Of a stretch of 64,000 nucleotides of DNA, positions 3,273-57,340 are shown in pieces; the first letter of the stretch is position 1, and each line of letters begins with the position of its first letter. Source of the DNA: Candidatus Uhrbacteria bacterium (lineage in GTDB: Bacteria; Patescibacteriota; Patescibacteriia; UBA9934). The DNA is taken from contig JABHCP010000001.1 in assembly GCA_018673485.1 (NCBI GenBank), positions 3,512 through 67,511 on the forward strand, in the 5' to 3' direction. The position numbers and the translations under genes were made by a program. The notes beneath the pieces were generated by a model that worked only from the letters and a program-made list of their open reading frames with translations, was not told the DNA's origin and did no database searches.

Positions 3273-4511
3273 TCACATCATCTTCCTGCGGATAAATGCT
3301 GGAATACCGAGGTCTTCATCGTCTTGGGCTTGATCTGGTTTTGACTGCGTTCCACCAGATGTTGGCTGTGGACTAATTTTTTGTTCAAAGTTGTTCACGG
3401 GCTTTGACTGCATCGGAGTGCTTGAGACCCTATTTTGTTCAAACGGAGAATCCTTTTTTATATTCACTGCCGGTCGCTCATCGCGCTCTGGAGCCTTCCA
3501 ACTTCCTTGTGGCGCAACGTCAGTGTCTCCGGCCAAGCTTGGTGTGCTGCGTGGTTTTCTATTATCAAATCCAGTTGCTACAACCGTAATCTTAACTTCG
3601 TCTTCAAGTGTATCATCGATATTCGCACCAAAAATAACTCGCGCATCATCATCCGCTGACCCCGTGATAACCTTAGCAGCTTCAGCAACTTCGTACATTG
3701 AAAGGTCCGGGCTACCAGTAACAGTGAAGAGGATTCCCTTAGCTCCATCAATCGAAAGTTCTAGCAGTGGACTAGCGATTGCCATCTTTGCAGCTTCGAC
3801 TGCACGATTTTCTCCTGACGCTGATCCAATTCCCATCAATGCTGATCCAGCATTTTGCATAATCGCTTTAACATCGGCAAAGTCAACGTTAATGAGTCCA
3901 GGTAAAGTAATGATCTCGGAGATCCCTTGAACACCCTGTCGCAGTACATCATCGATTATCGCGAATGACTCTAAAAGTGAAGTCTTTTTGTCGATAATCT
4001 GCAAAATTCGATCATTGGGAATTGTAATGACTGTATCAACTTGTTCTACTAAATCATTATATGCGTCATCTGCAATTCGCTTTCGCTGTGCACCTTCAAA
4101 TGTGAAAGGCTTTGTAACTACAGCAACAGTCAGTGCGCCTGCCTCACGCGCAATCTTTGCTACCTCGGGCACCGCGCCACTTCCGGTTCCACCACCGAGC
4201 CCTGCGGTTAGAAAAACCATATCAGTTCCGGCGACCATATTGCGAATATCGTTTGCTCCTTCTTCTGCTGCCCGGCGACCGACCTCTGGATTCATTCCAG
4301 CTCCAAGACCACGAGTGACAGTTTTTCCAATCGCAACTTTTTCTTGAGCGGGGTTCTGATGAAGAGCTTGTACGTCGGTATTTACCGCAACAAAGCCGAC
4401 ACCTTTAATTTTCTCTTCGATCATTCGTTTTAGTGCAGCGCCTCCGCCGCCGCCAATTCCAAAAACTTTGATCTTCGCGAAAGTTTCTACTTCTGGTTTT
4501 ACTTGAACCAT
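3273..4511 (-). CDS. ftsZ: cell division protein FtsZ
   Basis: Tubulin signature GGGTGSGAAP, long C-terminal linker, C-terminal GIPAFIRRK peptide. Confidence 0.95.
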   Translation of the reverse strand: MVQVKPEVETFAKIKVFGIGGGGGAALKRMIEEKIKGVGFVAVNTDVQALHQNPAQEKVAIGKTVTRGLGAGMNPEVGRRAAEEGANDIRNMVAGTDMVFLTAGLGGGTGSGAVPEVAKIAREAGALTVAVVTKPFTFEGAQRKRIADDAYNDLVEQVDTVITIPNDRILQIIDKKTSLLESFAIIDDVLRQGVQGISEIITLPGLINVDFADVKAIMQNAGSALMGIGSASGENRAVEAAKMAIASPLLELSIDGAKGILFTVTGSPDLSMYEVAEAAKVITGSADDDARVIFGANIDDTLEDEVKITVVATGFDNRKPRSTPSLAGDTDVAPQGSWKAPERDERPAVNIKKDSPFEQNRVSSTPMQSKPVNNFEQKISPQPTSGGTQSKPDQAQDDEDLGIPAFIRRKMM

Positions 4512-4749
4512 AGCTGAACAATTATTGTGTTATATCTACCTCCTCCATGAACACTTATTGTATTCAATTAAGCTAACATTAAATACTTTTTGTATTCATA
4601 AATTACCACACCAAGTGATGTGCATAAAGCGGTGGGTGTGGATAAGACGGGGGGGAAATAGACCATACGTAATTCCAGTGGAGGGCAAGCTGAAGACTTT
4701 ACCTTGCATTATGGCCTTTGTGGATTCTGAACTACCGTTGCTGTTCTCG

Positions 4750-5030
4750 GTCTGGGGGCACTTCGTCCCCCAAACCCCCAAGACTTACTTTCTTTGTTCG
4801 CCTCAAAGAAAGTAAGCAAAGAAAGAGCGGTCGCGGGTCCCACGCCCTATATCCATTTCAATATTGGAAACCTGATTAATTTAAATAGGTATAGGGCTGC
4901 AGTCAATGTTTTTGGGTGACTATGAATGAACTGATTGCCAGCTCGGTCGGCAGGCTCCCTCTCAGACGTGGTTGTCTGACAATGAGTGAACGGAGAGCTA
5001 ACTACTGTAACATTGCCGGGGGACTTAGGT
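4750..5030. repeat. structured ~280 nt repeat element, copy 1 (candidate ncRNA or MITE)
   Basis: About 140 nt of near-identity plus conserved hairpins match the reverse complement of 57061..57340. It sits in a 710 bp spacer separating ftsA from ftsZ. Confidence 0.6.
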
Positions 5031-5222
5031 TAAAGCACATAAACCGCCTTTCGGCGGTTCATTAAACTGTTTTCTGCCTACCGCACTACTACTTATTCTG
5101 TCGTTCCTCCACAGGAATTGCGCATGATCCAAGTGCGCAGTGCTCAGGAGACAAAAAAGCCGAGCATAGACTCGACTCCCAACTGCGCACAGCGTACTGA
5201 GCACCGTGAACTAGCCCTCCAA

Positions 5223-6473
5223 TCACGGAATCAATGACTTCATCCACTTTCGTAACTGATCCGCGACCTGATTAACACCCTTGATATTTAATAAATTGAA
5301 CTTTCCACCATGAGCGCCACGTATAGCAAATCCCCAAAGTGTAAGACCGACAGCCGTCGCATAGGCACTATCTTGCACCTCATCGATAACGCTAGTAACT
5401 CCAATTGGTTTACCGATAGTTGATGGCAATCTCAGCACTCGCTTTGAAACATCAGCCACGCCCGGTAGATGCATTGTCGCACCCGTTAAAACAACCCCAA
5501 CTGGCAGCATTCCAGACCGATCAACCTTACGAAGTTCGTCATCAATATTCTCAAATAACTCCTCAATTCGAGCTTCAATAATTTCTGATACAAATCTAAC
5601 CTTTATCATCTCATCTTCAGTTGATCCAAAGTCAGCTAGTGAGAACTGAGCCTTTCTATCTACATCGTCTGGAACTGCATTACCAAACTCTCTCTTTACC
5701 TTCTCAGCGACTTCCAGTGATGTTCTAAGCCCGATAGCAATGTCATTGGTCAAATGATCCCCTCCAACAGGTAAAACCGCTGTATGGAGGATGTCACCTT
5801 CTTCAAAGACAACCATACTCGTTGAAGATGCACCGATGTCAATCACACATACTCCAAGCTCTTTTTGTCTTTGTGTGAGCACAGCCTCCGCAGTTGCTAG
5901 TGGAGTAAACACAAGATCGTCAATATCCAATCCGGTTCTATAAATTGTCTTGGTAAGATTCTTGATTTGAGATGAAAGTGTTTGAATAATCACCGCATCA
6001 ACCTCTAGTCTTATTCCACTCATGCCAACCGGGTCCTTGATTCCGTGCTGCCCGTCCACTGTGAAACTCTTTGGAATCACATGCAAAATCTCAAAATTCG
6101 ATGGTGTAGCCACGGTTCTAGCGGCCTCAATAACTCGCTCTACATCTTCTTCACGAATATCCGTATCTGCTCTGGCAATTCCAACCACTCCATGGCTCTC
6201 TTGCACAAATATATTATGCCCGGCAATTGAGACCCACGCACCATTTACTGCAACTCCTGTCATGCGCTCGGCGCGCTCTAATGCCTTTGAAACAGAAGAT
6301 ACCGCATCTTCCATAGAAGACACAGTTCCTTTATGTACGCCCTCTGATGGAACAGAAACGGCTCCGGTGATGTGTAATTGTGGTTTTCCGGTTTCATCAG
6401 GTACAACCTGACCTACAACCACACGTATTGTGGATGACCCAATATCTAACCCTGTGATGATCTCCTCTGCCAT
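5223..6473 (-). CDS. ftsA: cell division protein FtsA
   Basis: MAEEIITGLDIGSSTIRVVVGQ actin-like ATPase; 416 aa. Confidence 0.9.
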   Translation of the reverse strand: MAEEIITGLDIGSSTIRVVVGQVVPDETGKPQLHITGAVSVPSEGVHKGTVSSMEDAVSSVSKALERAERMTGVAVNGAWVSIAGHNIFVQESHGVVGIARADTDIREEDVERVIEAARTVATPSNFEILHVIPKSFTVDGQHGIKDPVGMSGIRLEVDAVIIQTLSSQIKNLTKTIYRTGLDIDDLVFTPLATAEAVLTQRQKELGVCVIDIGASSTSMVVFEEGDILHTAVLPVGGDHLTNDIAIGLRTSLEVAEKVKREFGNAVPDDVDRKAQFSLADFGSTEDEMIKVRFVSEIIEARIEELFENIDDELRKVDRSGMLPVGVVLTGATMHLPGVADVSKRVLRLPSTIGKPIGVTSVIDEVQDSAYATAVGLTLWGFAIRGAHGGKFNLLNIKGVNQVADQLRKWMKSLIP

Positions 6474-9011: not shown

Positions 9012-9920
9012 CTATCCTAATGGGTCGTATCCTCCAATGACCTCTGTGCCGTCATCATAACCATCGCCGTCTGAATCTGGATTTGTTGGGTCTGTTCCGT
9101 GCAAGCGAACTTCTTCATAATCTGACAAACCGTCATCATCTGAATCTGAATCTTCATCACTTGTTCCCTGATATCTTTCTTCGTCAGCGTCCAATCCATC
9201 AAAATCTTTATCACCTGGCCCCACCATTTCAAGACAGGTATATTTATATTCTCGGATCCCAACTAAATAACATTTAGTTGGGTCTTGAGCTTCAATTGCC
9301 TCAGCCATAATTGCACCATATTTACATTGCGCGTCAGATATAATCTCATTATCGCAATTGCCGTTAATGCTTGCGTTTTGAGCCCACAATGCATGACAAT
9401 TATCAACTTTTTCTGAACTAGAATACTCCTCGCAATCACTGTAGGTATAATCATCACTCATTGTTTGAGTCACTATGGCATCACCACAACTATCCCTTGT
9501 TTCTTGATCTTCAATTTTTTTACAATCATCGGCATCTAAGGATGTCAAAGCGGATAATGCTGCGCACGAATCATAATCATCACCTTCAAGCTCATCACAA
9601 TAAGCGGTGTCACCAGTTTGTTGAGCCAACCGTGGAGCAGCACTTGCAATACATTTCTCTACGTCATCAGCACTCTGACATGACTCAATATAAAGCCTTG
9701 TACTTTGCTCAATATCGTTGCTACTACTGAAAAATGAACTAATCACAAACATTAACAACCAAACAACAAGGCCGATGACAATAATCGCACCAATGACTCT
9801 CCTAATAAGCACTCGATGCATTAACAGCCTATCTCTAAGACTGATAGTCTTCTCACCTTCTTGATCAATCTCATACCAATCAACCTGCTTTTCATCAAAT
9901 TGTTTTTGTTCGTTTTTCAT
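9012..9920 (-). CDS. single-pass membrane protein, Cys-rich ectodomain plus C-terminal TSP3-like repeat module
   Basis: Transmembrane helix VIGAIIVIGLVVWLLMFVISSFF, many Cys, DSDSDDDGLSDYEEVRLHGTDPTNPDSDGDGYDDGTEVIGGYDPLG. Confidence 0.6.
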   Translation of the reverse strand: MKNEQKQFDEKQVDWYEIDQEGEKTISLRDRLLMHRVLIRRVIGAIIVIGLVVWLLMFVISSFFSSSNDIEQSTRLYIESCQSADDVEKCIASAAPRLAQQTGDTAYCDELEGDDYDSCAALSALTSLDADDCKKIEDQETRDSCGDAIVTQTMSDDYTYSDCEEYSSSEKVDNCHALWAQNASINGNCDNEIISDAQCKYGAIMAEAIEAQDPTKCYLVGIREYKYTCLEMVGPGDKDFDGLDADEERYQGTSDEDSDSDDDGLSDYEEVRLHGTDPTNPDSDGDGYDDGTEVIGGYDPLG

Positions 9921-9932
9921 ATGATTGAAAGA

Positions 9933-12900
9933 TTAATCAGTACACATATTAAGATACATATCGGACAATTCAACCGTTCCCTCTCCATTTAAAGACACTC
10001 TCAGTGTCACTGTTTGTTCACTGGACTCATCACATGCGAATGTACTTGGAAGATTGATCGACCTGCTTGATCCAGCTCCAACAGTGGAAGCCTCAGTCTC
10101 ACCATCAAATGTCAACGAAATCGTTACATTAAGAATAGCGTCAACAATTGCTTCATACATATCAGCCAATTCATTCGCTGTTGTTGCGCTGTAAGCATAC
10201 GTTGTTCCATTGTCCGGCACTACACAGTCATGATTACCTTCTGTGGTCATAACTCCACATGAACCACCACCGTCTGTATCACTAATATCTGTGCATTCCA
10301 TGCTAGACCATCGTTGCATCTGAGCGATTTGACAGTCGTTACTGCTTAATACTGCCGAGAATACCTCAACACCAGCGTCCTTGATGTCATCAAGGAGATT
10401 GCTTACTCCTCGCATATATTCATCCGTATCCATAACATCATCACCGTCTGTATCTTCTGTGTCGATATGATCAAAGTACAAACTTTCGTAATCAGTATTG
10501 TAAATGTTTCCATCAGTGAAAATAATCATATACTCATTGTCAGCATACCCAGAGAATCCCAGCGCAGCGTCCTCAATAGATTCATAAATAGGTGTTCCAG
10601 TTACACCGTCAACAACTAGGCCATCGGATATGCTCAATTGAGTATCTGACTCTGTTGTATACACGCCTGCCGAACTTGCAGCCTCCAACATCAAGAACTT
10701 ACCTTCTCCAGACGACGCATAGCTCGCCCAAGCAATTAATGGCTTAAATGAACTCATGGCTTGATCCCACAGTGACATAGATGCTAACTTTGTACCCTTT
10801 AAGCCTGGGGTGAAAACAGTTGCATCATCTGCCTCTCCAACACCATCTGTGCCAGATGTACCACTGTCACCCAATCCATCATCGGTGCTACTATCATCAT
10901 CCTCACAAAGAGCCTCACAGTCAGCCACATCTACAGCCATTTCCCCACAATCACACACAACTGGGTCTGGCTCGACCTCTTCACACTCATCACCTATTCC
11001 ATCACCATCTGTATCTGTTTGCGAAGAATTGGAATCATCTGGACAGTTATCATCTTCATCTACTATTCCATCACCATCTGTATCTACAGGAGCCGTATAA
11101 GTTTGATGTGTCCCTCCAATATACGCCCATCCGATCCCCATATTTGCTGAGGTTCCATCATACGCTTCATGTAGAGACGTAATTGCATCACTAACAGCTG
11201 ATTCCAGAACCTCGATCCTGGTACTATCCCCCAGCTCTGAACTCATTGATCCTGAAAGGTCAATAACGAACATAATTTCTACATCCGGATACTCTCTGTC
11301 ACTCTGATCAATTGAAATACTAATCCCATCAGAAACGGTACATGCTGGAATATACAATGTAACTGTGTCACCACTGACTACACTAGTTGCAGTAGCGTCA
11401 TATGGCGCCAGATCTACGGTGTAGCTTCTGCTTGCCCCAATCTGATTCGTCTGCATTGAAATGCTTTGCGCAGTGTATGTAAACGGACAAGTTGACTCGC
11501 ATGACGCGTCACAACTTGGAGCAACACATGTGCTAATGCCGTCCATGCAAAGTTCGGAAGTCGGAGAACAGTAACTACCATCACTCCAGGCAGCACCCCC
11601 TGCATCTCCACCTTCGCAAACACCAGTCGGCACACATGAACGTCCCTCATCGTCCACCAATCCATAATCGCTTGCAAGGCATGTTTCTCCAATTCCTAGG
11701 CCTGCACGCTGATATAGAGTCTCACTGTAATAATTATATAAAACATCAGTTCCATCACAAGTCTCGCTTCCGTTAATAACTCCGTCACCGCAGAAACTTC
11801 CAGATGTTGTGACATTCACACAGCTCTCATTACAATACGCACAAGTTGATCCGTATGTAGCCGAGCATATTTGACCGTTGTCGATACCCTCATCGCAATT
11901 CTCCATGCCAGCGTAAACATATCCGTCACCACAAACGTTGCTGGTGCACTCTATTGTGCAGTCGTCTGTTGAGTCGTCATTTCCATCATCACACTCTTCG
12001 CCGTCGTCAACCACTCCGTCTCCACAAGACCCTGGTGCAATACAATCTATGTCTGCCCAATCCTCTCCCCACTCGCAAACAGAGTCATCACAACTTCGTG
12101 TGCGGATTGTTTGATATTCAAATGTTGAGCAAATTCCATCCCCTCCTACGCTACTATCACAATAACTATTAACTCCACACGGCTCACCGGTCTTGCTAGC
12201 GTCTCCATCGATACACACGGTGGTATAAGGGCACTCATTGGCCGTATCTTTGGAAATATCATCAGGATCAGAGTCTCCACAGACCGCAGTGCCCGCCTCA
12301 ATCTCAGCCTCAATATCGATATCGTCGCCGTCACTTAGCCCAAAAGTACCCGATGCACAATCGCTATCTTGTTCGCATTCACCATCATTGTCCGACATTC
12401 CTGATGAACAAATCTTTCCGGAATAAGTTTCTGTGTTTCCATCGCACTCTTCTGAATCATCTGCTGTGCTATCTCCACAATATGGCGCTGGACCGGAACA
12501 ATCCCAAGCACAAGTGTCAGACGCGCTTGCACTATAAACTCCGTTCAGATATGTACACGCCCCTGCTCCATAGGCAGCTCCAGACGCTGGTGCCACAGAT
12601 CCACAGTCGCACAGCTCACCACCAGCAAGCTCTCCATCTCCGCAGTAGGTACGTGCTGAGTTAGTACAATCTGCACCACAGAATCCATAACTACCATTTA
12701 AAGATCCATCATCGCATTCCTCACCAGCTTCTAAAACTCCGTTTCCACAACTCAAAACTTCACACTCTAATGTTGCGTCATAACCTGAACACTCTGAGTT
12801 ACAATTGTTTAATATATATCCATCATTAACTCCATCTTCATCTGAATCACACGCCGCGCCTGAAGTGGTATCCCCTATTTCACAGGTCTCAGCACTTCCT

Positions 12901-15900
12901 ACTATTCCATCTCCACAAATGTCAGATGAACCCCAAACTGTTGATCCGTCACAAAAGGCTGCTCCATTTTGGAATCCGTCACCAGTACCACTGCCTCCAA
13001 TTAAAATCTGATAATCATCATAAATATTATTATCAATATCTGGCACCCAACTTCCCTGTTCAAACTCAAGCTCAGCGCCTATCACATATCCAGCATCTCC
13101 ATAAGTTCGATAGTGATATGTTCTTGAGTCAACCGGACAAAGGTACTGACCGGTGATTTCGTTTACACAAGTTTCAGAATCATAATCGCTATAACGACCG
13201 GTTCCGCAAAGTATGTATTGATTCAACGGGTCAGCTGCAACGCTTACTCCCAACTCATCTGCCAAAACATCATTCCATGAAGTCCAAACGCTTGATGTCA
13301 ATGAACGCACGAAACTTCCTGACTCAATTTGTGGAATCGTGCCACCCATGTAGCTCGCAATATCAGTAACGTCCCCCAAGCGATCCATGTCACGCATTAG
13401 CTTTGATTTTTCATCAGCGCACTCATAACCTACCGTGGTGCAATCTAAATCCGAAGTACAGCTATCGCCATAGTCCCCGTCTGTGCTGCGGTAACACATC
13501 GCTGTGTCATCAATATTATTTACCAATGACATATTCTCTATAAACATGTCGTAAATCTCTACCGCAGTGCTGCTTGCACCATAGTTGTACGAGACAATTA
13601 CAATATTTGGATACAACGAACCAGATACATAATTAGGCACGGCGACATAAATTGAACGTCCATCCACTACAGCTTGGAACCCATCGATAGTTGTTTCGGT
13701 TGGACTACCTGAGAACCCGTTCGCGTAATACCACGCAAGCGGACTTAGGTACGCCTCGTTCATAATAATCCTCATTCCAATGGCGTCGCCTGTTGGAATG
13801 TTGTCGTCATAAACATTAAAGAAATATTCCTTCAGAACATCATCAGTACCATGCTCTTGAGCCATCACTACTCGCAACTCAGGATAATCATCTGAAATTA
13901 GATCATCATCACCGTCGTCGCGACAATAATATGTTGAGAAGTTCATCCACGCTCGACCATGACGAGCCGATGTTGCAACACCTGCATGGTACCCATCGGC
14001 ACTGTCGCTAAATGGGAAATACTCCAGAGCTGGCCATAAGTTTTCACAAACCACTACTGACACGTCAGCAGTACCAGAGACAGTTGTCGCCTCACAAGTT
14101 CCAGAATCGCCACAGGCGTCCCCGGGTGTACACCCGGTAATGCTCGCGTCACTACTGCAATAGAACGACTCACCCGAGTCATCAACGGTCACAATGGCTG
14201 AGGTTGCGATGTTGGCCTGTCCTGTTATACCTGCCGCTGAATACGACCCTAAAGCAGGGCTTGCTAGATCAACAGTTTCGTCATCCAAAATCATTATTAT
14301 ATCTTCACCATTTGGCGCGCCATAGACATCAACACCGTCAGCGTCAGAACTCCAACTAACCCATCCCCATGCATAACTTGAAATTGGCTCAATTGATTGG
14401 GCTGCGCCTGTGTCATATGAATACGCTGTTGCTGAGAATTCATGAGACTCTCCGGACTCAGTAAACACATTTGGACTATCCGTTTCTCCATCGACAATAT
14501 CAACCTCGTCGAGCCCACAAATACTTTGATATGTTTCAAATATTTGTGAATGATCTCCATCCATTGCTACACCGTACCTTGTTAGCAATCCCTCGCGCGC
14601 TGTGTCGTCGAGCTCATCACCATAAACATAAATTGAATACTGAGCGTCGGGTGCCAGCGCTTCGTCGTAATGGAATACTACCTTGTAAACCTCATCCGCA
14701 CCCTCGCCTACGGTGCTCTGCGCAAAGCCAGTCATTGGCATAACACAGTCTCCACCATTTTGAGCTTGGACAATTGGAGCCAACATTCTACTAATCAAAC
14801 TAAAGGCTCGGCTCCACCAACCCTTTTGAATTTCATTCATTGCTATTGTTGAATGCGTACTTGGGCACAGTCCATCATCCGTCGTTGACACATCAAGGAT
14901 CAAAAATGCATTGTCATCAAATGATGATACGTCCATCTGCATATCAAACAATCCGTAAATCTCGGCATTTAAACATGCGCTTGAACCATTCGGGAAAAGA
15001 TCTGGATCAGGGCGTGCCATGCAACAACCAGTTGTAGCTGGGCCATAGCCCTCGTCACAGTCATCATCGTTTTCAGCTACACACGACAAGTAAAGCGAAG
15101 TGTAAGCTGAAAGTCCGTCATATGAAACCTCGATTGTTGACGTTGCAATATTTGTATCCATATCAACCTGCTCAGCTGCATCATCGATGATTTGAGCAAG
15201 CTGTACTGGGTCTGGATAACCATCAGGTCCAGCGCCATACGAGCTTTCCTCGCACACTGCCAACTCACCACTTCCTACAACTCCGTCTCCACAAACTGAA
15301 GGGTCGACGTAATAAATTGAAGAACCTGAGAGCAAGCAATCACTAGAGCACCACTCTTCCCCATCGCAATCCTCACCAGCGCCAGTGGAGCTGTCTTGAT
15401 CGAGCGACTCATCACCACAAGTTCCATAGCTTCCAGCTGAACCTTCACGCAAACAACTTGAAGAACACCCATCACCATCGATGGTGTTACCGTCGTCGCA
15501 TGTTTCATAAGGAGCATCTATATCCCAATCTCCGTCTCCACACTCAGCTGCAACTTGAGTAATAGGTGTTGTTCCTTCGTTTAAACATACTGAGGAACAT
15601 CCGTCACCTGAGGATGCATTTCCGTCGTCGCACTCTTCTCCACCTTGATCGTCCTCATGTGCCTCATCAAGATTTCCACAAGTTGCTCCGACTGACTGCG
15701 AGCCCTCGTTCAAACACGAACTTGAGCATCCGTCACCATTTCTCGAATTACTATCATCGCACTCCTCACCAGCATCCAAGTCTCCGTCTCCACAACATGA
15801 CGCGTCGTCTTGACCACAAGTTGAACTAGAATAAACACACTCTTCGTCAGACCCGCAAACTGTGCCAGAGATTGAGCAAGTGCCCTCCAGTGTTTCAGTG

Positions 15901-18900
15901 TCGCTGATCTCACAAACATCCTGACACTCCACGTCTGTACTACACGAGTCTCCAGTACTAGAGCATGAATACGTACAGGCGCTGGAACCAACATTTTGAC
16001 ATGTACTTGAACACGTAACATCGTCGGTGTCATCGCAGTCCTCACCAATCTCTACTATACCGTTACCACAAATTCCATAATATATTTCAGATCCTGTAGC
16101 AACGCACTCGGAAGTGCATCCAGACGGAATATTAGTTTGTCCGACATCAAATAGATCGCTTGAAATAGTCACCCACTGCGCGACATCCTCATCATCCACT
16201 ATTGGATCGGTCCACACCCACTCATATTCATAGCCATTCAATTCTTGTCCGGCAACTGAACAACTATCCGGATCTCCATAGGCAGTTACTTCGTAATACT
16301 GTGTGTCGCCAATGCTATCAAGTGTAATATTTTCTGGCTCCAAGCCTATGCGACCGACCAAACAAAGTGCATCGTCGTCCTTAGTCCCAAAAGTCCAAGA
16401 AAAATCATCGCCATAGTTTGTTCGTGACAGTGGAACTCCGCTTGTCGAGATAGCTGACCCCGAAACTATAACTCTATAATATTCTGCTTCTTTCAGCTCT
16501 GTGCCATATGTAGTGTCAGAAATTACCAGAGCAACCTCTGAACATCCAACAGATTCGATATCAGTTGAATCTCCAATAGAATCTGTATCGCTACAGCTTG
16601 CCACAGTTGTAATTTCTGAAAGAGTTGCGCAAAGCTCGTTCGCGCATGAATACAACGCTATATCACCAAGAACTGAATCATCCATTAGTGTATTGAAAGT
16701 TACGCTGATCGCACCGTTAATGCATGCGGTATCACAGTCTGGCAAGTAATCACTTACATAAGGATCCGCAAAGTTCACTATCACCTCGGCGTCTCCCTCT
16801 GTACCACTAGCCTGCTCTTCTGCAGTTAGCACCGTCGTACCCTCCGCTACCGCCACTGCTGACTGACAATACTCGTCGCTTATAGTCGCACAACTCGTCA
16901 GCCCAACATATGAACCAGTATCCAAATCCCAATCCCATGAGTAATCAACTGGATTTAGCACCTGGCACTCTTGAAGTGGAAGTGCATTAAACTCTGATTC
17001 ATCTCCCTGCTCGTCGATTGTCGCTGATATCGGACTAACCAAAACCTCGGATACATCACAATCCTCCTCACTTGCACCAGTTGTGAAAGTCCATGAATAT
17101 TCCTGGCTTAAGTTCTGTCCATCTTGGGACATTATTTGATCACTAACTTCTACTAAATACGAAGTGCTTGTCTTAAATTTTCCGCCATTATATGTTGAGT
17201 GTGCTGTCCATATAAACGATGTCTGAGTGGCGCTCGCGCTATCTTGCACTGAATCTGCCAAAACCTCTGCCGCGTCCTTATCGTCACCGCTTAGATCGCA
17301 ATCACTGTCCTCGCACTCATAAACTTTGATGTAGTCGCTCGTGATAGTGCTTGTATCCATTAATGTGCTGAAAGTTCCACGCACAACCGCATTAGTGCAC
17401 GCCTCTCGCGTGAAGCGATAGTTAGGCACGGCACTCACCAAAGTATCCGAACATTCAACTAAAAGTTCAGGCACTACCGGTATGGGTCCAGTTGAGAAAA
17501 ACCAGCTATACCCACCCAGCGACAATGTGGTGTCACTCGACTCTTCTGCTCCTATTTCAAAATTAAGCGTGTTACTTTCTTCTCCTCCGGCTGAAGTAAC
17601 ACTCAACGCTCCAGTCTGCGCTCCAGACGGAACATTTACAGTAATATCACTATCGCTCCAGTCACCAGAGACGACTGTAGCGCTCACACCGCTGAAAAAC
17701 TCAACTGAACCAATGTCAGAGCCAAGGTTCTCTCCATAAATAACCACGGTATCATCCACTTCGCCCATATCCGGATCAATTGCGCAAATTCCCGGCGTTG
17801 GGTCATCATTTGTTACTTCAAAATCCATAGCCTCGGAGTCAATATCGGCCTGGCTTGTTATATAAATATCATAGTCCCCTACCGTAAGACTGTCTCCGCC
17901 TGTAAATTCGTCAGGCACTATTACAGTTATTTCGGTGGTATCCCAAATTTGTCCCTCACACTCATCTGGAAACTCAATACTTCCTTGCGCTGTGTATCCG
18001 CTGGTCTGATCCTCAAACCAAACGGTGCCCAAAGAAGATCCAAAGCTTGTTCCGGAGATCGTTACATATTGACCGATCCCTCCACTATCAGGCTCAACTG
18101 AATAAATAGTTGGTACAATGTCATCTCCATAATCAACACCAAAGCTGATCTCGTTTGAAGTCACTCCATCAACTGTCACAGAAAGATCAACGTACTCACC
18201 GGCAGTGAGTGACGGAACAGTAATTGTGAGTGACGAATCTGACCACCTAGAGTAACTGCTCGTCGTGGTTGTATTAAAACTTACAAATGAATCATCTCGA
18301 CTGTCTCCAAAGCCTAGCCCAGAAAGTGACACTCCGTCTCCGACTTCAGCAGTATCAGGACTAACGTTACAAAGACTTGGTCGCTGCGTATCATTAACAT
18401 CAAAATCATCAATTAATGCACCCGAATCATCGTCGGTTGCGTCTGAATACCCTCGAGGTATCTCGATTGTAATTGGACCATCAGCTGCTCCGTCTGGTAC
18501 TTCAGCAATGATCTCCTCAGAGTTCCAACCGTCACCACATGATGGAATATCGGCCTCAACTGTGCCACCCGCACCATCTGCGAAGTAAACGGAACCAGTT
18601 GACCCAAAACCGGATCCAGAAATAGTTACATAAGTTCCAACCGCACCGTTTGAAGGTGAGACGCTACTTATTTCAGGATATGTTACACATGCCCCATCTT
18701 CACAGTCTCCACCCGAACAATCACTATCTTCAGAGCATGATTCACCATCGCAACTACCACAACTTCCACCGCAATCAACCCCCTCTTCGTCACCATCCAA
18801 TACTCTACTAAAACAATGAGCTGGCAGAATCCTAATTCGAACAGAATCAGAATCTTCATTTCCAGCAATATCGGTCACTGTAACTTCGAGCGTGTAACGT

Positions 18901-19928
18901 GCATCTTCCTCGGCGTCATCTGTGTACCAAGTGCTCTCGATTGTCACGTCAGACAAGTCTGCACCACTGGCTGCAACACTATCGAACCAATCGTCACCGG
19001 CATAAAAATCAGCAACTGATATTTCACTATCATCTGTTGCAGATATTTGAACAAGCGTTGAACTATCCGCTGGAATCATCTCACCACTATCTGGATATGT
19101 GACGCTTACATTGGGGTCCTCTGTATCAACTATGTCCCCTGTTGTGAAAGTCGATGTACAACTTACAGCCGAACAATCTAGAGAGGTTCCTGATGTGCTA
19201 TCAATATCGCTATCAACTACAACTGTGTATTGTGTATTTTCACCAAAACAGAATCGATCTTCATTAGGTTCCGGGCAAGGCTCCGATGGTGTAAACGTAA
19301 CTTTATTTCCAGAAATCTCTAATGTGCCATCAACCTCATCGCCAGTTTCTGTATTAGAAATAGTAAGATTGCCCTCAACGGTATCCTCTTGAACTCGCCG
19401 GCTAAAAGTAACATTCAAAACCACGTTTCGAATTGAAACCTCACCTTCTGGTGAATAACTGGCAACTGCAAAGCTCGAAGCCGATCCACCACCCATACCA
19501 CTGGACGCCCCTGAAGAACTTGAGCTTGAACTCGATCCTGAGCCACCCGAGCCGTCTGTTAAGGCCCCTAACACAAATGTGGTGATTGACCAGGACAAAA
19601 GTATTATTCCCAGGCCAATAAAGCCATTTAATAAAATCTTTTTCGCTTTATCCACTTTGTCAGGGTCGCCTTGGGCTGTCATCCAGACAAATCCTCCGTA
19701 CAGCACGATGACCACTGCAATAACGCCCAGCACCGTCAGAAAGGTTCTGATCAGCCTGGCGACTATGATTTGCAGACTCTCATCTTGCAAACCGCTAGTC
19801 TCACCTACAGTTTCAAGTTCATCAACTTGAGCGTACGCTGTGTGGATTGGTGCTAAAACACCTCCCGACACAGTAAATACGACTGCGAGTGCGCTTAATA
19901 GTAAAGTGAAACGTTTGAGTAATGACAT
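9933..19928 (-). CDS. giant (3331 aa) membrane-anchored surface protein with IPT/TIG repeats, Myxococcus-type cysteine-rich repeats, a vWA domain and TSP3 repeats
   Basis: N-terminal signal peptide plus a two-helix module (LGVIAVVIVLYGGFVWMTAQGDPDKVDKAKKILLNGFIGLGIILL). Repeated SPxxGxxGxYVTISGxxFG IPT-like units. At least 8 CGDGxxxxGEECDDGNxxxGDGCSxxC units. MIDAS motif DVEIMFVIDLSGSMS. DTDGDGIVDEDDNCPDDSNSSQTDTDGDGIGDEC. Confidence 0.85.
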   Translation of the reverse strand: MSLLKRFTLLLSALAVVFTVSGGVLAPIHTAYAQVDELETVGETSGLQDESLQIIVARLIRTFLTVLGVIAVVIVLYGGFVWMTAQGDPDKVDKAKKILLNGFIGLGIILLSWSITTFVLGALTDGSGGSGSSSSSSSSGASSGMGGGSASSFAVASYSPEGEVSIRNVVLNVTFSRRVQEDTVEGNLTISNTETGDEVDGTLEISGNKVTFTPSEPCPEPNEDRFCFGENTQYTVVVDSDIDSTSGTSLDCSAVSCTSTFTTGDIVDTEDPNVSVTYPDSGEMIPADSSTLVQISATDDSEISVADFYAGDDWFDSVAASGADLSDVTIESTWYTDDAEEDARYTLEVTVTDIAGNEDSDSVRIRILPAHCFSRVLDGDEEGVDCGGSCGSCDGESCSEDSDCSGGDCEDGACVTYPEISSVSPSNGAVGTYVTISGSGFGSTGSVYFADGAGGTVEADIPSCGDGWNSEEIIAEVPDGAADGPITIEIPRGYSDATDDDSGALIDDFDVNDTQRPSLCNVSPDTAEVGDGVSLSGLGFGDSRDDSFVSFNTTTTSSYSRWSDSSLTITVPSLTAGEYVDLSVTVDGVTSNEISFGVDYGDDIVPTIYSVEPDSGGIGQYVTISGTSFGSSLGTVWFEDQTSGYTAQGSIEFPDECEGQIWDTTEITVIVPDEFTGGDSLTVGDYDIYITSQADIDSEAMDFEVTNDDPTPGICAIDPDMGEVDDTVVIYGENLGSDIGSVEFFSGVSATVVSGDWSDSDITVNVPSGAQTGALSVTSAGGEESNTLNFEIGAEESSDTTLSLGGYSWFFSTGPIPVVPELLVECSDTLVSAVPNYRFTREACTNAVVRGTFSTLMDTSTITSDYIKVYECEDSDCDLSGDDKDAAEVLADSVQDSASATQTSFIWTAHSTYNGGKFKTSTSYLVEVSDQIMSQDGQNLSQEYSWTFTTGASEEDCDVSEVLVSPISATIDEQGDESEFNALPLQECQVLNPVDYSWDWDLDTGSYVGLTSCATISDEYCQSAVAVAEGTTVLTAEEQASGTEGDAEVIVNFADPYVSDYLPDCDTACINGAISVTFNTLMDDSVLGDIALYSCANELCATLSEITTVASCSDTDSIGDSTDIESVGCSEVALVISDTTYGTELKEAEYYRVIVSGSAISTSGVPLSRTNYGDDFSWTFGTKDDDALCLVGRIGLEPENITLDSIGDTQYYEVTAYGDPDSCSVAGQELNGYEYEWVWTDPIVDDEDVAQWVTISSDLFDVGQTNIPSGCTSECVATGSEIYYGICGNGIVEIGEDCDDTDDVTCSSTCQNVGSSACTYSCSSTGDSCSTDVECQDVCEISDTETLEGTCSISGTVCGSDEECVYSSSTCGQDDASCCGDGDLDAGEECDDSNSRNGDGCSSSCLNEGSQSVGATCGNLDEAHEDDQGGEECDDGNASSGDGCSSVCLNEGTTPITQVAAECGDGDWDIDAPYETCDDGNTIDGDGCSSSCLREGSAGSYGTCGDESLDQDSSTGAGEDCDGEEWCSSDCLLSGSSIYYVDPSVCGDGVVGSGELAVCEESSYGAGPDGYPDPVQLAQIIDDAAEQVDMDTNIATSTIEVSYDGLSAYTSLYLSCVAENDDDCDEGYGPATTGCCMARPDPDLFPNGSSACLNAEIYGLFDMQMDVSSFDDNAFLILDVSTTDDGLCPSTHSTIAMNEIQKGWWSRAFSLISRMLAPIVQAQNGGDCVMPMTGFAQSTVGEGADEVYKVVFHYDEALAPDAQYSIYVYGDELDDTAREGLLTRYGVAMDGDHSQIFETYQSICGLDEVDIVDGETDSPNVFTESGESHEFSATAYSYDTGAAQSIEPISSYAWGWVSWSSDADGVDVYGAPNGEDIIMILDDETVDLASPALGSYSAAGITGQANIATSAIVTVDDSGESFYCSSDASITGCTPGDACGDSGTCEATTVSGTADVSVVVCENLWPALEYFPFSDSADGYHAGVATSARHGRAWMNFSTYYCRDDGDDDLISDDYPELRVVMAQEHGTDDVLKEYFFNVYDDNIPTGDAIGMRIIMNEAYLSPLAWYYANGFSGSPTETTIDGFQAVVDGRSIYVAVPNYVSGSLYPNIVIVSYNYGASSTAVEIYDMFIENMSLVNNIDDTAMCYRSTDGDYGDSCTSDLDCTTVGYECADEKSKLMRDMDRLGDVTDIASYMGGTIPQIESGSFVRSLTSSVWTSWNDVLADELGVSVAADPLNQYILCGTGRYSDYDSETCVNEITGQYLCPVDSRTYHYRTYGDAGYVIGAELEFEQGSWVPDIDNNIYDDYQILIGGSGTGDGFQNGAAFCDGSTVWGSSDICGDGIVGSAETCEIGDTTSGAACDSDEDGVNDGYILNNCNSECSGYDATLECEVLSCGNGVLEAGEECDDGSLNGSYGFCGADCTNSARTYCGDGELAGGELCDCGSVAPASGAAYGAGACTYLNGVYSASASDTCAWDCSGPAPYCGDSTADDSEECDGNTETYSGKICSSGMSDNDGECEQDSDCASGTFGLSDGDDIDIEAEIEAGTAVCGDSDPDDISKDTANECPYTTVCIDGDASKTGEPCGVNSYCDSSVGGDGICSTFEYQTIRTRSCDDSVCEWGEDWADIDCIAPGSCGDGVVDDGEECDDGNDDSTDDCTIECTSNVCGDGYVYAGMENCDEGIDNGQICSATYGSTCAYCNESCVNVTTSGSFCGDGVINGSETCDGTDVLYNYYSETLYQRAGLGIGETCLASDYGLVDDEGRSCVPTGVCEGGDAGGAAWSDGSYCSPTSELCMDGISTCVAPSCDASCESTCPFTYTAQSISMQTNQIGASRSYTVDLAPYDATATSVVSGDTVTLYIPACTVSDGISISIDQSDREYPDVEIMFVIDLSGSMSSELGDSTRIEVLESAVSDAITSLHEAYDGTSANMGIGWAYIGGTHQTYTAPVDTDGDGIVDEDDNCPDDSNSSQTDTDGDGIGDECEEVEPDPVVCDCGEMAVDVADCEALCEDDDSSTDDGLGDSGTSGTDGVGEADDATVFTPGLKGTKLASMSLWDQAMSSFKPLIAWASYASSGEGKFLMLEAASSAGVYTTESDTQLSISDGLVVDGVTGTPIYESIEDAALGFSGYADNEYMIIFTDGNIYNTDYESLYFDHIDTEDTDGDDVMDTDEYMRGVSNLLDDIKDAGVEVFSAVLSSNDCQIAQMQRWSSMECTDISDTDGGGSCGVMTTEGNHDCVVPDNGTTYAYSATTANELADMYEAIVDAILNVTISLTFDGETEASTVGAGSSRSINLPSTFACDESSEQTVTLRVSLNGEGTVELSDMYLNMCTD

Positions 19929-26625: not shown

Positions 26626-26764
26626 TTAGTTAGAAGTATACAGTAGGCGGTTATCAGTGGCTAGGCAGTGCGGGTTTAAATTGTTTAATCGCTCGGCTCC
26701 GCCATCACTTGTTTAAAATGTTTATTTCGAAGTAAACACTTTAAACAATTTAAACATCTTAAAC

Positions 26765-26793
26765 AAAAATTAGGGCGCTAGGCCCTAATTTTT
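26765..26793 (-). terminator. rpsU terminator
   Basis: TTAGGGCgctaGCCCTAA hairpin flanked by A/T runs, immediately 3' of rpsU. Confidence 0.6.
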
Positions 26794-27053: not shown

Positions 27054-27214
27054 GTGCTTTCACCTTCCTTTCTCTGTTTGATAAGAATTACGCACGAATA
27101 GTAGCTTATTGATGCATAAATGTCAACAGTAAGGGTTTGAGTTGTTGAAGGTGTTTAAGGTGTTTATTTTGAAGTAAACATTTTAAACATTTAAACACTT
27201 TAAACCTTCCCCAT

Positions 27215-34912: not shown

Positions 34913-34917
34913 AAAAT

Positions 34918-34958
34918 GTGTCACCCCTGGCTACGACCAGGGTCCCATCAACTATCGA
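34918..34958. repeat. TGTCACCCCTGGCTACGACCAGGG hairpin repeat unit
   Basis: Same unit as at 48856 and 53365; translates as VTPGYDQGPI in track ORFs. Confidence 0.6.
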
Positions 34959-38189: not shown

Positions 38190-39476
38190 ATGATCCCACA
38201 GTATAACGAAACCTACGAAAAGTTTTTATCGCTTACGAATCTTTGCGAAAAGGTATTTTCGGATTCGACGGCAGAGCTTAAGAAGTCTATGAAGCGCACT
38301 GAGCAATTTATGGAAGCTCTTGGTAGTCCGCACAAAAAGCTCAAGATTATTCACATTGCCGGCACCAGTGGTAAAGGATCAACCGCGTACATGGTTCATC
38401 AAATGCTTACAGCTGATAAGCAAAATGTTGGAACGTATCTATCTCCTCACACAACAACCTTTCTGGAACGCTTTCAATATAACGACAAGCTTTTGAGCGC
38501 TGACGATCTTGTGAGTTCGATGAATGAGCTCATGGATACTTATCAAAAACATCTGGCAAAAACTAATACTCCACTTTCATTTTTTGAGCTATCGACTTGC
38601 CTTTCACTTTTTGCTTTTCAAAAAGCTGGTGCAAGGTGGTGCGTACTTGAGACAGGATGCGGAGGTCGATGGGATGCTACAAATGTAATTCCGACTCCGG
38701 AGGTTGCGATTATCACAAATATCGATAAGGACCATACAGAACTTCTAGGTAACTCACTTGCACAAATCGCATTTGAAAAAGCAGGAATTATTAAAAAGAA
38801 TGGAACAATATTCTGTGGTGAAGTCAGACCAAATATAAAAAAGGTGTTCATGAAGGAAGCGATAAAAAATAATGCAGCGCTTTTCTTTATTCACCCACCA
38901 TTTGAAAACATCATTAACGCTGAGCATGGAGAGCATCAACAACACAATGCGTCACTTGCGATTGCTGCAGCGAAGGAGATAAACATCAAAGATAATGCGA
39001 TCGAGCAAACGCTTGATAATCTTAAGCGACTTCCCTGCCGATTTGAGACAATGCAACAGTCACCACAGATAATTCTCGATGGCGCCCACTCCCCTGCAAA
39101 GATCGCGGCCACTGTTAAAAAAATCAAAGAACTCAAAAAACCAATTCATCTAATCTTTGGATGTGCGGCAAATAAGGATGCACCGCAAATGCTCAAGCAA
39201 CTCATCCCTCACGTTGATAAAGTAACTACAACACGGTTCCAAATGGGCATGCGTAAGGCTGCGGTTCCATCTGAACTCCTGAAGGTTGCACCAAAAGCAA
39301 AGCGCGCAGGTTCATTCTTGGACCACAGTGAAGCGCTTGATCACGCAAAAAAACAAAGTAAGAATGACGAGGTAATAATCGCCACCGGCTCTCTCTTCTT
39401 AACCGGCGAGTTGAGAGCTAATTGGATAAGTGAGGATCAAATCGTTAAAAGCTCGAATTCATTCTCACACATATAA
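38190..39476 (+). CDS. folC: folylpolyglutamate synthase / Mur ligase family
   Basis: IHIAGTSGKGST P-loop, Mur ligase middle and C-terminal domains. Confidence 0.8.
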   Translation: MIPQYNETYEKFLSLTNLCEKVFSDSTAELKKSMKRTEQFMEALGSPHKKLKIIHIAGTSGKGSTAYMVHQMLTADKQNVGTYLSPHTTTFLERFQYNDKLLSADDLVSSMNELMDTYQKHLAKTNTPLSFFELSTCLSLFAFQKAGARWCVLETGCGGRWDATNVIPTPEVAIITNIDKDHTELLGNSLAQIAFEKAGIIKKNGTIFCGEVRPNIKKVFMKEAIKNNAALFFIHPPFENIINAEHGEHQQHNASLAIAAAKEINIKDNAIEQTLDNLKRLPCRFETMQQSPQIILDGAHSPAKIAATVKKIKELKKPIHLIFGCAANKDAPQMLKQLIPHVDKVTTTRFQMGMRKAAVPSELLKVAPKAKRAGSFLDHSEALDHAKKQSKNDEVIIATGSLFLTGELRANWISEDQIVKSSNSFSHI

Positions 39477-39556
39477 CCACCCCTATCCCCTCCTTAAAAA
39501 GTAGGGGGACCAAGATCTCGACCCTCCCCCTTTTTAAGGGGGAGCTGGAGGGGGTT
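39475..39556. repeat. palindromic MITE-like repeat (CCCCCT/AGGGGG family)
   Basis: aaccacccctatcccctccttaaaaagtagggggaccaagatctcgaccctccccctttttaagggggagctggagggggtt. Confidence 0.7.
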
Positions 39557-39629
39557 AAATCTTACGTCATTTGACATACTCCCTTATTTACTGCATTATT
39601 GCTACGTAAATACTACATTTTAGCCAACT

Positions 39630-43479: not shown

Positions 43480-43530
43480 GGCAACCCCCTGTCGTCCCCC
43501 TTGGGAAGGGGGGACACGAGAGTCTCGACT
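43480..43530. repeat. truncated copy of the CCCCCT/AGGGGG palindromic repeat
   Basis: ggcaaccccctgtcgtcccccttgggaaggggggacacgagagtctcgac. Confidence 0.6.
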
Positions 43531-48845: not shown

Positions 48846-48855
48846 AATTTTTTAT

Positions 48856-48941
48856 GTGTCACCCCTGGCCACGACCAGGGGTCTATCACTCTTGCGAATT
48901 CGATAGTCGATGGATCCCGGCTCTACGGCCGGGATGACAGA
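48856..48941. repeat. composite hairpin repeat (TGTCACCCCTGGCCACGACCAGGGG + TCGATGGATCCCGGCTCnnnGGCCGGGATGACA)
   Basis: The same two units recur at 53360..53440 and 53500..53555. Confidence 0.7.
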
Positions 48942-50500: not shown

Positions 50501-50593
50501 GCCGGCAACCCCCTCTATCTCCCCCTTGGGAAGGGGGAGGATCTTAGTCTCGACCCCCCCCTCCTTCCCAAGGAGGGGCTGGGGGTGGTTGCC
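50501..50593. repeat. palindromic MITE-like repeat (CCCCCT/AGGGGG family), full copy
   Basis: gccggcaaccccctctatctcccccttgggaagggggagg...ccctccttcccaaggaggggctgggggtggttgccg: an outer inverted repeat enclosing two internal hairpins. Confidence 0.75.
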
Positions 50594-50594
50594 G

Positions 50595-51302
50595 TTATAT
50601 CCGCTCAATTATAATCTCGCTATCTTTTTGTTTAACTTTTACAATTTGCCTTCGCATCATCTCAAGGAGTGCTAGAAAACTTACCACGACTTCCACTTTG
50701 CTTTTTGCACCCGCAACCACATCTTTAAAACTCATCTTTGCGCGAGTACTTATCGCCCCCTTGAGCTCATCGAGTCGTTCCTCAACTGACTTCACTCTTT
50801 CCATTGATATTTCTCGTAGAGCAAAGAACGGTTCCATTCGTTTTAGCAGTGATCGAAAAGCTTGGTGCAAATTTATAAGTGTGATGTTATCTGCCGGATA
50901 AAAAGCATCTTCTGTTTCGATAATCTTCCTCGTGTAAGGTCTTAGATGAGACTTTTTTGGACTTGTAAATTGCTCCTCCAATCGATCGGCTGCTTCTTTA
51001 AACAATCGATACAAACGCAACTGATCTTCCAAGTCCTCGATTTTATCCTCCTCATCATCAATGCGTAAATATGGCAAAAGCTCGCGACTTTTTATATATA
51101 TCAAACGCGATGCAATAACCAAAAAATCAGCCATTTCCTCAGGCAACACCTGCTCACTATCAAGCCGTTGCAGATACTCGTCAGCAACTTCGGCAAGGTT
51201 CACATCCTTAATTTCCAACTCACGCTTATCGAGCAATTCCAAAAGAAGCCCCAAGGGACCAGCAAACGCCTCCTGCTTGATTTCGAACTGCATCATACTC
51301 AC
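50595..51302 (-). CDS. scpA: segregation and condensation protein A
   Basis: 235 aa, kleisin ScpA family N-terminus. Confidence 0.9.
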   Translation of the reverse strand: MSMMQFEIKQEAFAGPLGLLLELLDKRELEIKDVNLAEVADEYLQRLDSEQVLPEEMADFLVIASRLIYIKSRELLPYLRIDDEEDKIEDLEDQLRLYRLFKEAADRLEEQFTSPKKSHLRPYTRKIIETEDAFYPADNITLINLHQAFRSLLKRMEPFFALREISMERVKSVEERLDELKGAISTRAKMSFKDVVAGAKSKVEVVVSFLALLEMMRRQIVKVKQKDSEIIIERI

Positions 51303-55360: not shown

Positions 55361-55494
55361 AACCCCCTCCAGCCGTCGCTCTTTCAGAGCTATGGCCGGC
55401 ACAGCCATCTCCCCCTTAAAAATGGGGAGGGTCCAAGTCTAGACCTCGACTCCCCTCCTTTTTAAGGAGGGGCTAGGGGTGGTTATGTGAAAGA
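55361..55494. repeat. palindromic MITE-like repeat (CCCCCT/AGGGGG family), longest copy
   Basis: aaccccctccagcc...tcccccttaaaaatggggagg...ccctcctttttaaggaggggctaggggtggtt. Confidence 0.75.
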
Positions 55495-56282: not shown

Positions 56283-56327
56283 ATCTTTATTAATATCTTA
56301 AACCACTATACAACTACCCACTCAGAG

Positions 56328-57060: not shown

Positions 57061-57340
57061 CCTGAGTCCCCCGGCAATGTTTAAGTAGTTACCCCCCGTC
57101 CATTCATTGTCAGACAACCCCGTCTGAGAGGGAGCCTGCCGACCGAACTGGCAATCAGTCCATTCATAGTTACCCAAAAACATTGACTGCAGGCCGAGGC
57201 ATTCTTTGCGGCCGTGGGACTACTCTGAAAAGGCTTTTTTCCGGCGGAGCCGGACCTGGCTCCGCCATGGCTTTGCATACTTTCTTTGAGCCAACAAAGA
57301 AAGTATGTCTGGGGGTTACAGGGGGATGAAATACCCCCTG
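57061..57340. repeat. structured ~280 nt repeat element, copy 2
   Basis: Reverse complement of 4750..5030. Conserved core of ~140 nt, conserved hairpin TACTTTCTTTG..CAAAGAAAGTA, compensatory stem CAGGGGG/CCCCCTG versus GGGGG/CCCCC. Confidence 0.6.

Follow-up and report, generated by a model that had tools for sequence, protein, structure and literature searches.

Several groups of bacterial interspersed repeats are the closest described counterparts of the element reported here. The BOX repeats of Streptococcus pneumoniae and the BIMEs of Escherichia coli are mosaic interspersed repeats. REPs are short sequences of 20–40 nt, present by the hundred and located on either side of a RAYT gene; enzymes of the RAYT and IS200-type HUH class leave neither inverted termini nor target duplications behind them. 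The genomes of Patescibacteria, at ~1 Mb, are usually called streamlined. A further group, that of MITEs such as Correia, ERIC and Nezha, has been reviewed (PMC10969869). The element described below most likely belongs to this broad and ordinary class of REP/BIME/BOX/MITE-like intergenic repeats and spreads as DNA. More specifically, it is probably a mosaic interspersed repeat that operates at the DNA level, non-autonomous and specific to the lineage of one Candidatus Uhrbacteria species.

How does this element compare with each of these systems? It is like BOX and BIMEs by general description, with no sequence relation known or found: all are intergenic, non-coding, 100–300 nt long, built of exchangeable modules, rich in hairpins, present in either orientation and devoid of an enzyme of their own. 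It differs from them in carrying a long sequence-conserved core without hairpin character, and in its host, a small-genome Patescibacterium. With the REP/REPIN-RAYT system it shares palindromic, (nearly) perfect hairpins (H1 and H2) that show compensatory changes, as well as the lack of terminal inverted repeats (TIRs) and target-site duplications (TSDs), and a related doublet from Ralstonia is REPIN-like; the Uhrbacteria unit is however ~280 nt long, with no RAYT gene and no inverted doublet in the window. Like MITEs, it is small, non-coding and multi-copy (245–278 nt, five loci), intergenic, predicted to fold and able to lie within operons, but it lacks the TIRs and TSDs that define them and has no known parent IS. 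A true MITE-like family, R3, does occur in the same genome. Finally, the element recalls the IS200/IS605 PATE, omega-RNA and HEARO group in having no TIR or TSD, one subterminal hairpin, and a conserved 3′ part with a sharp junction, while it differs in lacking a 3′ hairpin, a target motif and a HEARO match, in that no partner gene was found, and in a core that shows no excess of structure.

The window, that is the whole stretch of DNA analysed, is 64 kb long. The initial annotation had described in it two inverted copies of about 280 nt, and both a repeat search and nhmmer located them as it had stated. Copy A (4753..5030, + strand, 278 nt) lies between ftsZ and ftsA and is antisense to both; copy B (57061..57338, − strand, 278 nt) has a conserved 75-aa ORF on one side and adk on the other, and runs in the direction of both. 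These orientations agree with the initial annotation, whose conclusion that the element is not a cis leader also held. The bounds given by nhmmer are 4753–5029 (+) for copy A (score 278) and 57338–57061 (−) for copy B (score 330.6), and the repeat search of the window returned inverted arms of 100 nt (4894–4993 and 57096–57195, 93% complementarity) accompanied by three flanking arm pairs. The neighbouring genes, as identified by Pfam, are FtsZ (3273–4511, −), FtsA (5223–6473, −) and Adk (56433–56987, −). The exact ends of the element are set solely by where the similarity between copies stops, as none of the near-identical strains offered a precise empty site.

The element is made of a variable, hairpin-rich 5′ half followed by a 3′ core of ~135 nt, for a total of about 245–280 nt over five loci. 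Its 5′ module (~70–75 nt) consists of two perfect hairpins, each of which is followed by a repeat of its own 3′ arm (C5 twice, CAAAGAAAG twice). The first hairpin, H1, has the general form GGGGG-Y-NN-TTC-NN-CCCCC across copies. It is found at 4754..4771 (+) in copy A as GGGGG-C-AC-TTC-GT-CCCCC, and its counterpart in copy B (57338–57321, −) is lengthened by CAG/CTG to 57340–57319, just as the initial annotation had read this G5/C5 hairpin. The second C5 tract, which duplicates the H1 3′ arm, follows at 4775..4779 (+) in copy A and at 57315–57311 in copy B. The hairpin that had been noted as TACTTTCTTTG...CAAAGAAAGTA is H2, present at 4784..4816 (+) in copy A as CTTACTTTCTTTG-N7-CAAAGAAAGTAAG and at 57307–57276 in copy B; its 13-bp stem is perfect in every copy. 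A tail, CAAAGAAAGAGCG (GCAAAGAAAGAGCG), at 4817..4829 (+), closes the shared 5′ module with a second occurrence of the nine bases that begin the H2 3′ arm; GMAAAGAAAGRGCG is retained in copy A, in L004 and L107, in the sister-species locus L108 and in Ralstonia. The middle stretch then carries one or two GC hairpins, inserted or swapped among copies. B-type copies have an additional GC hairpin of 30 nt, inserted behind GCAAAG (57266–57243 in copy B). The variable pre-core hairpin of copy A (4844..4897, +) is GCCCTATA...TATAGGGC, and the copies other than A have GGCCG...CGGCC in the same place, the sequence being wholly replaced and the hairpin kept. The conserved 3′ core runs in copy A from 4897 to 5030 (+; CTGCAGTCAATG...GCCGGGGGACTTAGG, the 3′ end being also given as GCCGGGGGACTNAG) and in copy B from 57192 to 57061 (−). 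A shared core of ~140 nt had been announced by the initial annotation; it does exist, with its length corrected to about 135 nt. Its 3′ edge is abrupt, at GGGGGACTNAG, beside unrelated flanks.

Both window copies are insertions, missing at the orthologous sites of a sister species. Retrieval by FtsZ assigns the window to Candidatus Uhrbacteria, within the Patescibacteria. The closest species-level genome, GCA_964452565.1 (loci L007 and L108), is syntenic with the window, and its FtsZ is 92% identical. The ftsA-ftsZ spacer measures 711 nt in the window vs 215 nt in the sister species (L007), and window positions 4646–5221 (576 nt) occupy the place of 81 nt there; FtsA (416 aa) is intact in both genomes, with the same C-terminal ending. 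The extra DNA is made of the element, of a unique 192-nt segment that lies beside copy A and outside the repeat (5031..5222, unstranded), of which no second copy was found in any sequence compared, and of ~100 nt of barely alignable spacer. The ftsZ-proximal upstream region (4512..4645, −, 134 nt) is 90% identical to positions 9867–10000 of L007; it can also be aligned to L008, L009 and others, is conserved in Uhrbacteria, and includes an invariant TTATCCACA. The sister species too has the conserved 75-aa ORF that flanks copy B, with 152 nt between it and adk. This sister spacer (L108) contains the different ~90-nt repeat R3, whose termini read TGTGYCAYCCC, and then the adk-proximal motif that the window also has. 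In another relative (L113), a 76-aa ORF, adk and map are separated by 3 nt. The initial annotation had called both gaps anomalous, and these spacer lengths bear it out. That the element might terminate a larger island was rejected, as the conserved 75-aa ORF separates the restriction-modification genes from it; since they lie beyond that ORF, these genes are a separate insertion.

Five distinct intergenic sites are occupied in all: ftsA|ftsZ, 75-aa ORF|adk, a site near nusG/secE (L003), tsf|gap (L004), and L107. The last of these, a new site, was recovered by way of a spurious ORF call. Drawn from the window, four JGI contigs and this one ORF-derived locus, the count of five is a lower bound for this Uhrbacteria species. 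Relative to the gene downstream, two of the five copies point the same way; the remaining three are convergent or antisense. GC skew is negative throughout the 64-kb window with no switch between the copies, which places A and B (two copies only) in opposite orientation on one replichore. The gene order of the window recurs in the MAG GCA_018644925.1 (JABGPN010000017.1) and in several ENA/JGI assemblies identified by exact-protein look-ups, and no near-identical strain, sought by exact Adk or FtsZ protein, was without copy A or copy B. One 21-mer of the core has the same sequence in every copy. Four JGI contigs contain it, and no exact match occurs in 185,579 species genomes or in IMG/VR viral contigs. 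No further copy of the element was found by nhmmer and a covariance model in 1.3–1.4 Mb of Patescibacteria loci, and a profile of the 5′ module alone returned nothing beyond the sister species in ~1.5 Mb of other Patescibacteria loci. Core homologues were found neither in phage nor in plasmid records, the latter giving matches to the H2 module alone. Contigs of independent assemblies begin or end within the element (L001, L003, L091, L094, L095, L100 and L102), which is how assemblers behave at repeats.

The copies exchange their parts. Identity between the five loci is 90–95% in the core, and 81–93% with large indels in the 5′ half and middle, where copy A reaches only 54–67%. The 30-nt GC hairpin is present in copy B, L002, L093 and L003, and missing from L004 and L107. 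At the adk site of L093, the 5′ half equals that of L003 (123/123) and the core that of copy B (127/128), a pattern that makes it a recombinant copy. L002 retains the adk side, its synteny with the window being lost exactly at the 5′ boundary of the element. In the sister species, L108 carries a diverged 5′ module without the core, with symmetric changes in H2, fused to an unrelated 3′ part and beginning ten bases past the adk stop. The element is a mosaic interspersed repeat of the BIME/BOX-like kind, a label that describes and does not imply homology, with modules variably present or exchanged, an intergenic location and strong hairpin potential. It was also proposed in the initial annotation as a non-autonomous mobile element, and this proposal agrees with the data: five intergenic loci, either orientation, absence at sister sites, recombinants and assembly breaks.

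The 5′ module has a relative outside the phylum of Uhrbacteria. In a BLAST search of plasmid records, the H2 region alone matches at 455 places in 144 records, almost all of them replicons of Ralstonia or other Burkholderiaceae, with 86–91% identity over 44–48 nt and a best E of 1e-5 in 7.3 Gb for the Ralstonia matches. A module HMM scores the Ralstonia/Burkholderiaceae units (L005, L006, L103 and L104) at 63–70 bits, and the aligned similarity covers ~70 nt, from TTTCGTCCCC through the 13-bp H2 to GCAAAGAAAGG. In Burkholderiaceae, the module opens an intergenic unit of ~220 nt, the rest of which is a long GC-rich palindrome; in Ralstonia GMI1000, a pair of them is arranged as an inverted doublet of 219 nt, and two IMG/VR contigs also bear the Ralstonia-type unit. 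This unit thus resembles the Uhrbacteria element in being intergenic and in its homologous first ~70 nt, but its palindrome is unrelated to the Uhrbacteria core and its G5/C5 tracts are otherwise arranged. A literature search on the Ralstonia repeat unit (as REP, REPIN or MITE), on the module sequence and on MITEs in CPR found no specific description.

Various other identities were considered and set aside. Rfam 15 at gathering thresholds returned only three tRNAs at 47.2–47.7 kb over the whole window; at E<=10, both copies gave only chance hairpin matches with E>1, and no HEARO match. There was no Rfam match for the Ralstonia relatives and L107 either, and ARAGORN found no tRNA or tmRNA in the element. 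A known RNA family was rejected on these results, be it tmRNA, RNase P, SRP, 6S, HEARO, group I/II introns, ribozymes or riboswitches, in line with the initial annotation, which had recognised no tmRNA, RNase P, SRP or 6S motifs. Coding was rejected too. The frame of a 41-aa ORF across the core has stops in 3 of the 5 loci, and the 41-aa and 65-aa ORFs show either stops in other copies or neutral ratios (12–24 : 34–45). Two frames are open in all copies, with synonymous to non-synonymous changes of 15:38 and 13:40 and no sign of purifying selection; throughout the six frames there are in-frame stops or neutral ratios. A template/variable pair of a DGR is excluded by changes running both ways (A>G, G>A, C>T, T>G) with indels, and by the intergenic position of both copies. 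Classical MITEs were discarded for want of TIRs, the 5′ end aligning with the reverse complement of the 3′ end over an internal 7–10 nt (GTCCCCC) at best, and of TSDs, the k-mers shared by the flanks being <=4–5 nt and none in register (six copies, four distinct sites); the MITE test named in the initial annotation therefore failed on both counts. An IS200/IS605-like element was rejected as there is no hairpin in the last 40 nt, the hairpins lying at the 5′ end only, no conserved target motif (left flanks GGTCT, AAGCA, CTATT, GCGCT, GTATT and AGCCA) and no partner gene. Pfam found no transposase or recombinase gene in the 64-kb window, which is also devoid of TnpA, TnpB, IscB and RAYT genes; none was seen in gene calls at the other loci, and no autonomous relative of the element was found. 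An independent gene with its own signals was rejected because no promoter or terminator is common to the copies, whose flanks are unrelated and which have no hairpin followed by a T-run.

The folding of the element has to be read with care. The spare 3′ arm behind each hairpin suggests an alternative pairing, in single-stranded DNA or in RNA: in the DNA fold of copy B and L108, the G5 tract pairs with the second C5 and not with the first, while RNAalifold pairs the second C5 tract (4775–4779) with GGGGG at 5018–5022. Among seven distinct sequences, compensatory double changes affect 3 of the 7 pairs of H1, whose variants include GGAGG/CCTCC in L093 and the inner pairs AC/GT, AT/AT and GT/AC, and 1 of the 13 pairs of H2 (T-A to A-U). 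In L093 and L003, the H1 5′ arm, the H1 3′ arm and the following C5 tract change jointly (GGAGG / CCTCC / CCTCC). The same seven sequences hold no covarying pair in the core. There, the clearest hairpin, UCAGAC/GUCUGA, shows one G-U pair and one broken pair; one predicted core pair is broken in L004. The long-range helix proposed in the initial annotation is indeed complementary (CAATGTT at 4904–4910, AACATTG at 5009–5015); as it never varies in the seven sequences, it offers no evidence either way. Compensatory changes are thus real yet limited to H1 and H2, and they do not single out RNA, because both hairpins fold equally well as single-stranded DNA, the 5′ hairpins giving a strong fold under DNA parameters (z about −4). 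Hairpins of repeat families can moreover stay complementary because mobility is selected for or because quasi-palindromes undergo templated correction. The covariation that the initial annotation had noticed therefore exists, but it is no specific sign of a folded RNA.

What, then, of the view that these copies are a family of mobile small non-coding RNA genes, producing a multi-branched sense transcript of ~280 nt closed by CCCCC/GGGGG and acting in trans, for example as guide or antisense RNA? Apart from the changes in H1 and H2, it can call upon whole-element sense folds that beat dinucleotide shuffles (z −2.8 to −3.6), on sense-strand pairs saved by G-U (CCUCC/GGGGG, GAGAG vs GGGGG opposite CUCUC, and GUCUGA to GUUUGA), on a location independent of host gene orientation, and above all on core conservation far above that of the 5′ half and middle, its strongest argument. 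Yet the antisense strand folds equally well or better (z −3.45 and −4.22), and all of the excess stability and covariation resides in the two perfect 5′ hairpins, the core alone showing no excess folding energy over shuffles (z −0.36 to −1.26). Together with the lack of a conserved internal promoter or terminator, the lack of any Rfam match and the lack of homologues among the other Patescibacteria loci searched, this makes RNA genes of this kind unlikely, and the independent ncRNA gene of the initial annotation was not upheld. The conserved core, of ~135 nt with its abrupt end at GGGGGACTNAG, lends itself to a different reading, in which the element is a PATE-like remnant of an IS200/IS605-type or similar transposon, the 5′ hairpins forming its left end and the core its right end, the latter possibly still encoding an omega-RNA-like guide scaffold with which a TnpB or IscB from another part of the genome would work. 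The size is suitable, the terminal hairpin has a bulged base and compensatory changes, and TIRs and target duplications are lacking as they should be. We nevertheless hold this to be very unlikely, given the lack of a hairpin near the 3′ end, of a conserved tetra- or pentanucleotide at either end, of replication strand bias for the two window copies, of TnpA, TnpB or IscB in the window or in gene calls at the other loci, of a HEARO or other Rfam match, and of excess structure in the core.

Two more readings start from the 5′ module. It begins a few bases past an upstream stop codon or terminator in copy B, L004, L108 and the Ralstonia loci L103 and L104, as would suit a domesticated cis-acting spacer element that insulates transcription units, guards mRNA 3′ ends or binds a nucleoid protein, like some REPs and BIMEs, and that spreads by recombination rather than transposition. 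The existence of recombinant copies, the retention of both copies by all near-identical strains and the sparing of the conserved gene-proximal upstream regions would agree with such a role, which we still find quite unlikely: the orientation to neighbours is inconsistent (copy A, between ftsA and ftsZ, is antisense), T-runs do not follow any of the hairpins, the same operons work in relatives with spacers of 3 to 215 nt, and the sequence-conserved core of 135 nt is left unexplained. The module of ~75 nt might instead be the functional unit itself, moved horizontally between Burkholderiaceae and Uhrbacteria, the 135-nt core being a lineage-specific cargo RNA. It would then be the recognition site of a novel single-stranded DNA transposase, or a mobile RNA/ssDNA conformational switch; we consider this highly doubtful.

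Returning to the mosaic repeat spread as DNA, its history may be pictured as follows. The element would have entered or arisen in this Uhrbacteria lineage after the split from close relatives and multiplied into tolerated intergenic positions, where its copies would now recombine with each other. Copying into new spacers would be performed by an enzyme supplied in trans, the likeliest candidate being a RAYT, an IS200-type HUH transposase or another enzyme for which hairpins of folded single-stranded DNA are the recognition signal. The idea of an enzyme that works on such DNA comes from the lack of TIRs and TSDs, from the dependence on perfect hairpins that carry a bulged base, and from the Ralstonia doublet, which is REPIN-like; this part of the scheme is tentative and rather more likely wrong than right, because no such gene is seen, there is no target motif, and there is no strand bias (two copies). 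The core and the 5′ module may owe their conservation to the proliferation of intact copies only, to which gene conversion between copies would add. Surviving insertions sit between transcription units and would be transcribed by read-through only. The copies are probably tolerated passengers, since the ftsZ-proximal region and the adk-proximal motif are intact downstream of the insertions. Several observations count against this explanation. Neither an autonomous relative nor a transposase was found in the window or at the other loci, and the lack of a target motif and of a 3′ hairpin departs from both IS200/IS605 elements and REPs. The unit is far longer than a REP, and the opposite orientation of the copies on one replichore misfits a strict lagging-strand bias (two copies only). 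The core, finally, is much better conserved than the rest, which would suit a functional RNA or a protein-binding site too.

Within a supposedly streamlined CPR genome, the window alone bears three families of interspersed repeats. Spacers within core operons (ftsA-ftsZ, secY-adk-map), which measure 3–215 nt in relatives, reach 150–711 nt here. The repeats mark points of recombination between strains and fragment short-read assemblies, which is worth knowing when these genomes are binned or compared. They also call for caution in RNA discovery: where the hairpins of a repeat family are perfect, compensatory changes in them are not enough to infer a structured RNA. The module common to Uhrbacteria and to Ralstonia/Burkholderiaceae offers a modest but tangible starting point for tracing DNA exchange between CPR and free-living bacteria; were it indeed the functional unit that moved between them, it would record, as molecular traces rarely do, a physical encounter of a Patescibacterium with a lineage that is a candidate host.

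Besides the ~280-nt mosaic element, the window holds a second repeat family, R3 (~90 nt), with copies at 34916-34951, 48854-48941, 53360-53447 and 53470-53554. Because R3 ends in the inverted repeats TGTGYCAYCCC and encloses two GC hairpins, it has the look of a true MITE. In the syntenic sister species (GCA_964452565.1), an R3 copy (9856-9940 of the adk-region locus, L108) fills the spacer that in the window holds copy B, the element copy before adk. A third family, R2 (~95 nt), has intergenic copies at window positions 39455-39560, 43480-43530, 50505-50598 and 55400-55490, and at 894-938 of L003, another locus of the same Uhrbacteria species. It is built of two C5/G5 hairpins placed around GTCTCGAC, all inside an outer stem GGCAACCCCC/GGGGGTGGTTGCC, and its copies may serve as bidirectional terminators.

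The ~70-nt 5′ hairpin module of the mosaic element recurs on the megaplasmid of Ralstonia pseudosolanacearum GMI1000 (L005, 1456-1979), where it opens both of two inverted 219-nt repeat units that are 87% complementary and stand 86 nt apart, an inverted arrangement resembling that of REPINs. The PLSDB gene table gives no feature for this interval. At the fifth Uhrbacteria locus carrying the element (L107), the copy is directly preceded on its 5′ side by ~1.1 kb of apparently non-coding DNA (860-1935) with a GC content of 60-70%, against ~45% for the genome, and scans of this stretch for Rfam families and for tRNA or tmRNA returned no match.

Between copy A, the element copy in the ftsA/ftsZ spacer, and the ftsA stop codon lies a unique 192-nt segment (5031-5222), which carries a perfect hairpin, AACCGCC-TTTC-GGCGGTT, 10 nt from copy A; no counterpart was found in relatives or in the remaining sequence data examined. 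The conserved region upstream of ftsZ contains, on the minus strand, a perfect DnaA-box consensus, TTATCCACA (4637-4645), that is invariant across four Uhrbacteria genomes. Elsewhere in the window, an ORF of 3331 aa that contains internal repeats (9933-19928) has precomputed Pfam matches to T4SS_pilin, Big_5 and TIG, and together with adjoining ORFs bearing TSP3 and Big_5 domains it looks like a large surface-protein cluster.

A low-GC (39%) restriction-modification island (57668-59868) encodes a Bsp6I-like endonuclease, as well as a protein in which a C5 DNA methylase is joined to both a LexA DNA-binding and an S24 peptidase domain, and is missing from the equivalent position in the sister species. 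A 53-nt motif, possibly a promoter or the binding site of a regulator, stands before both adk (56995-57047) and yqeY (26674-26726), and its position before adk is conserved in the sister species. TAAACA/TGTTTA motifs form AT-rich arrays at 26700-26770, 27135-27209 and 53270-53324. The adk-map spacer measures 150 nt in the window (56283-56432) as against 243 nt in the sister species (L108, 10556-10798), and in a further relative (L113, 9767-10565) a 76-aa ORF, adk and map are separated by just 3 nt. Repeat-driven enlargement of spacers looks like a recent development confined to this Uhrbacteria lineage.
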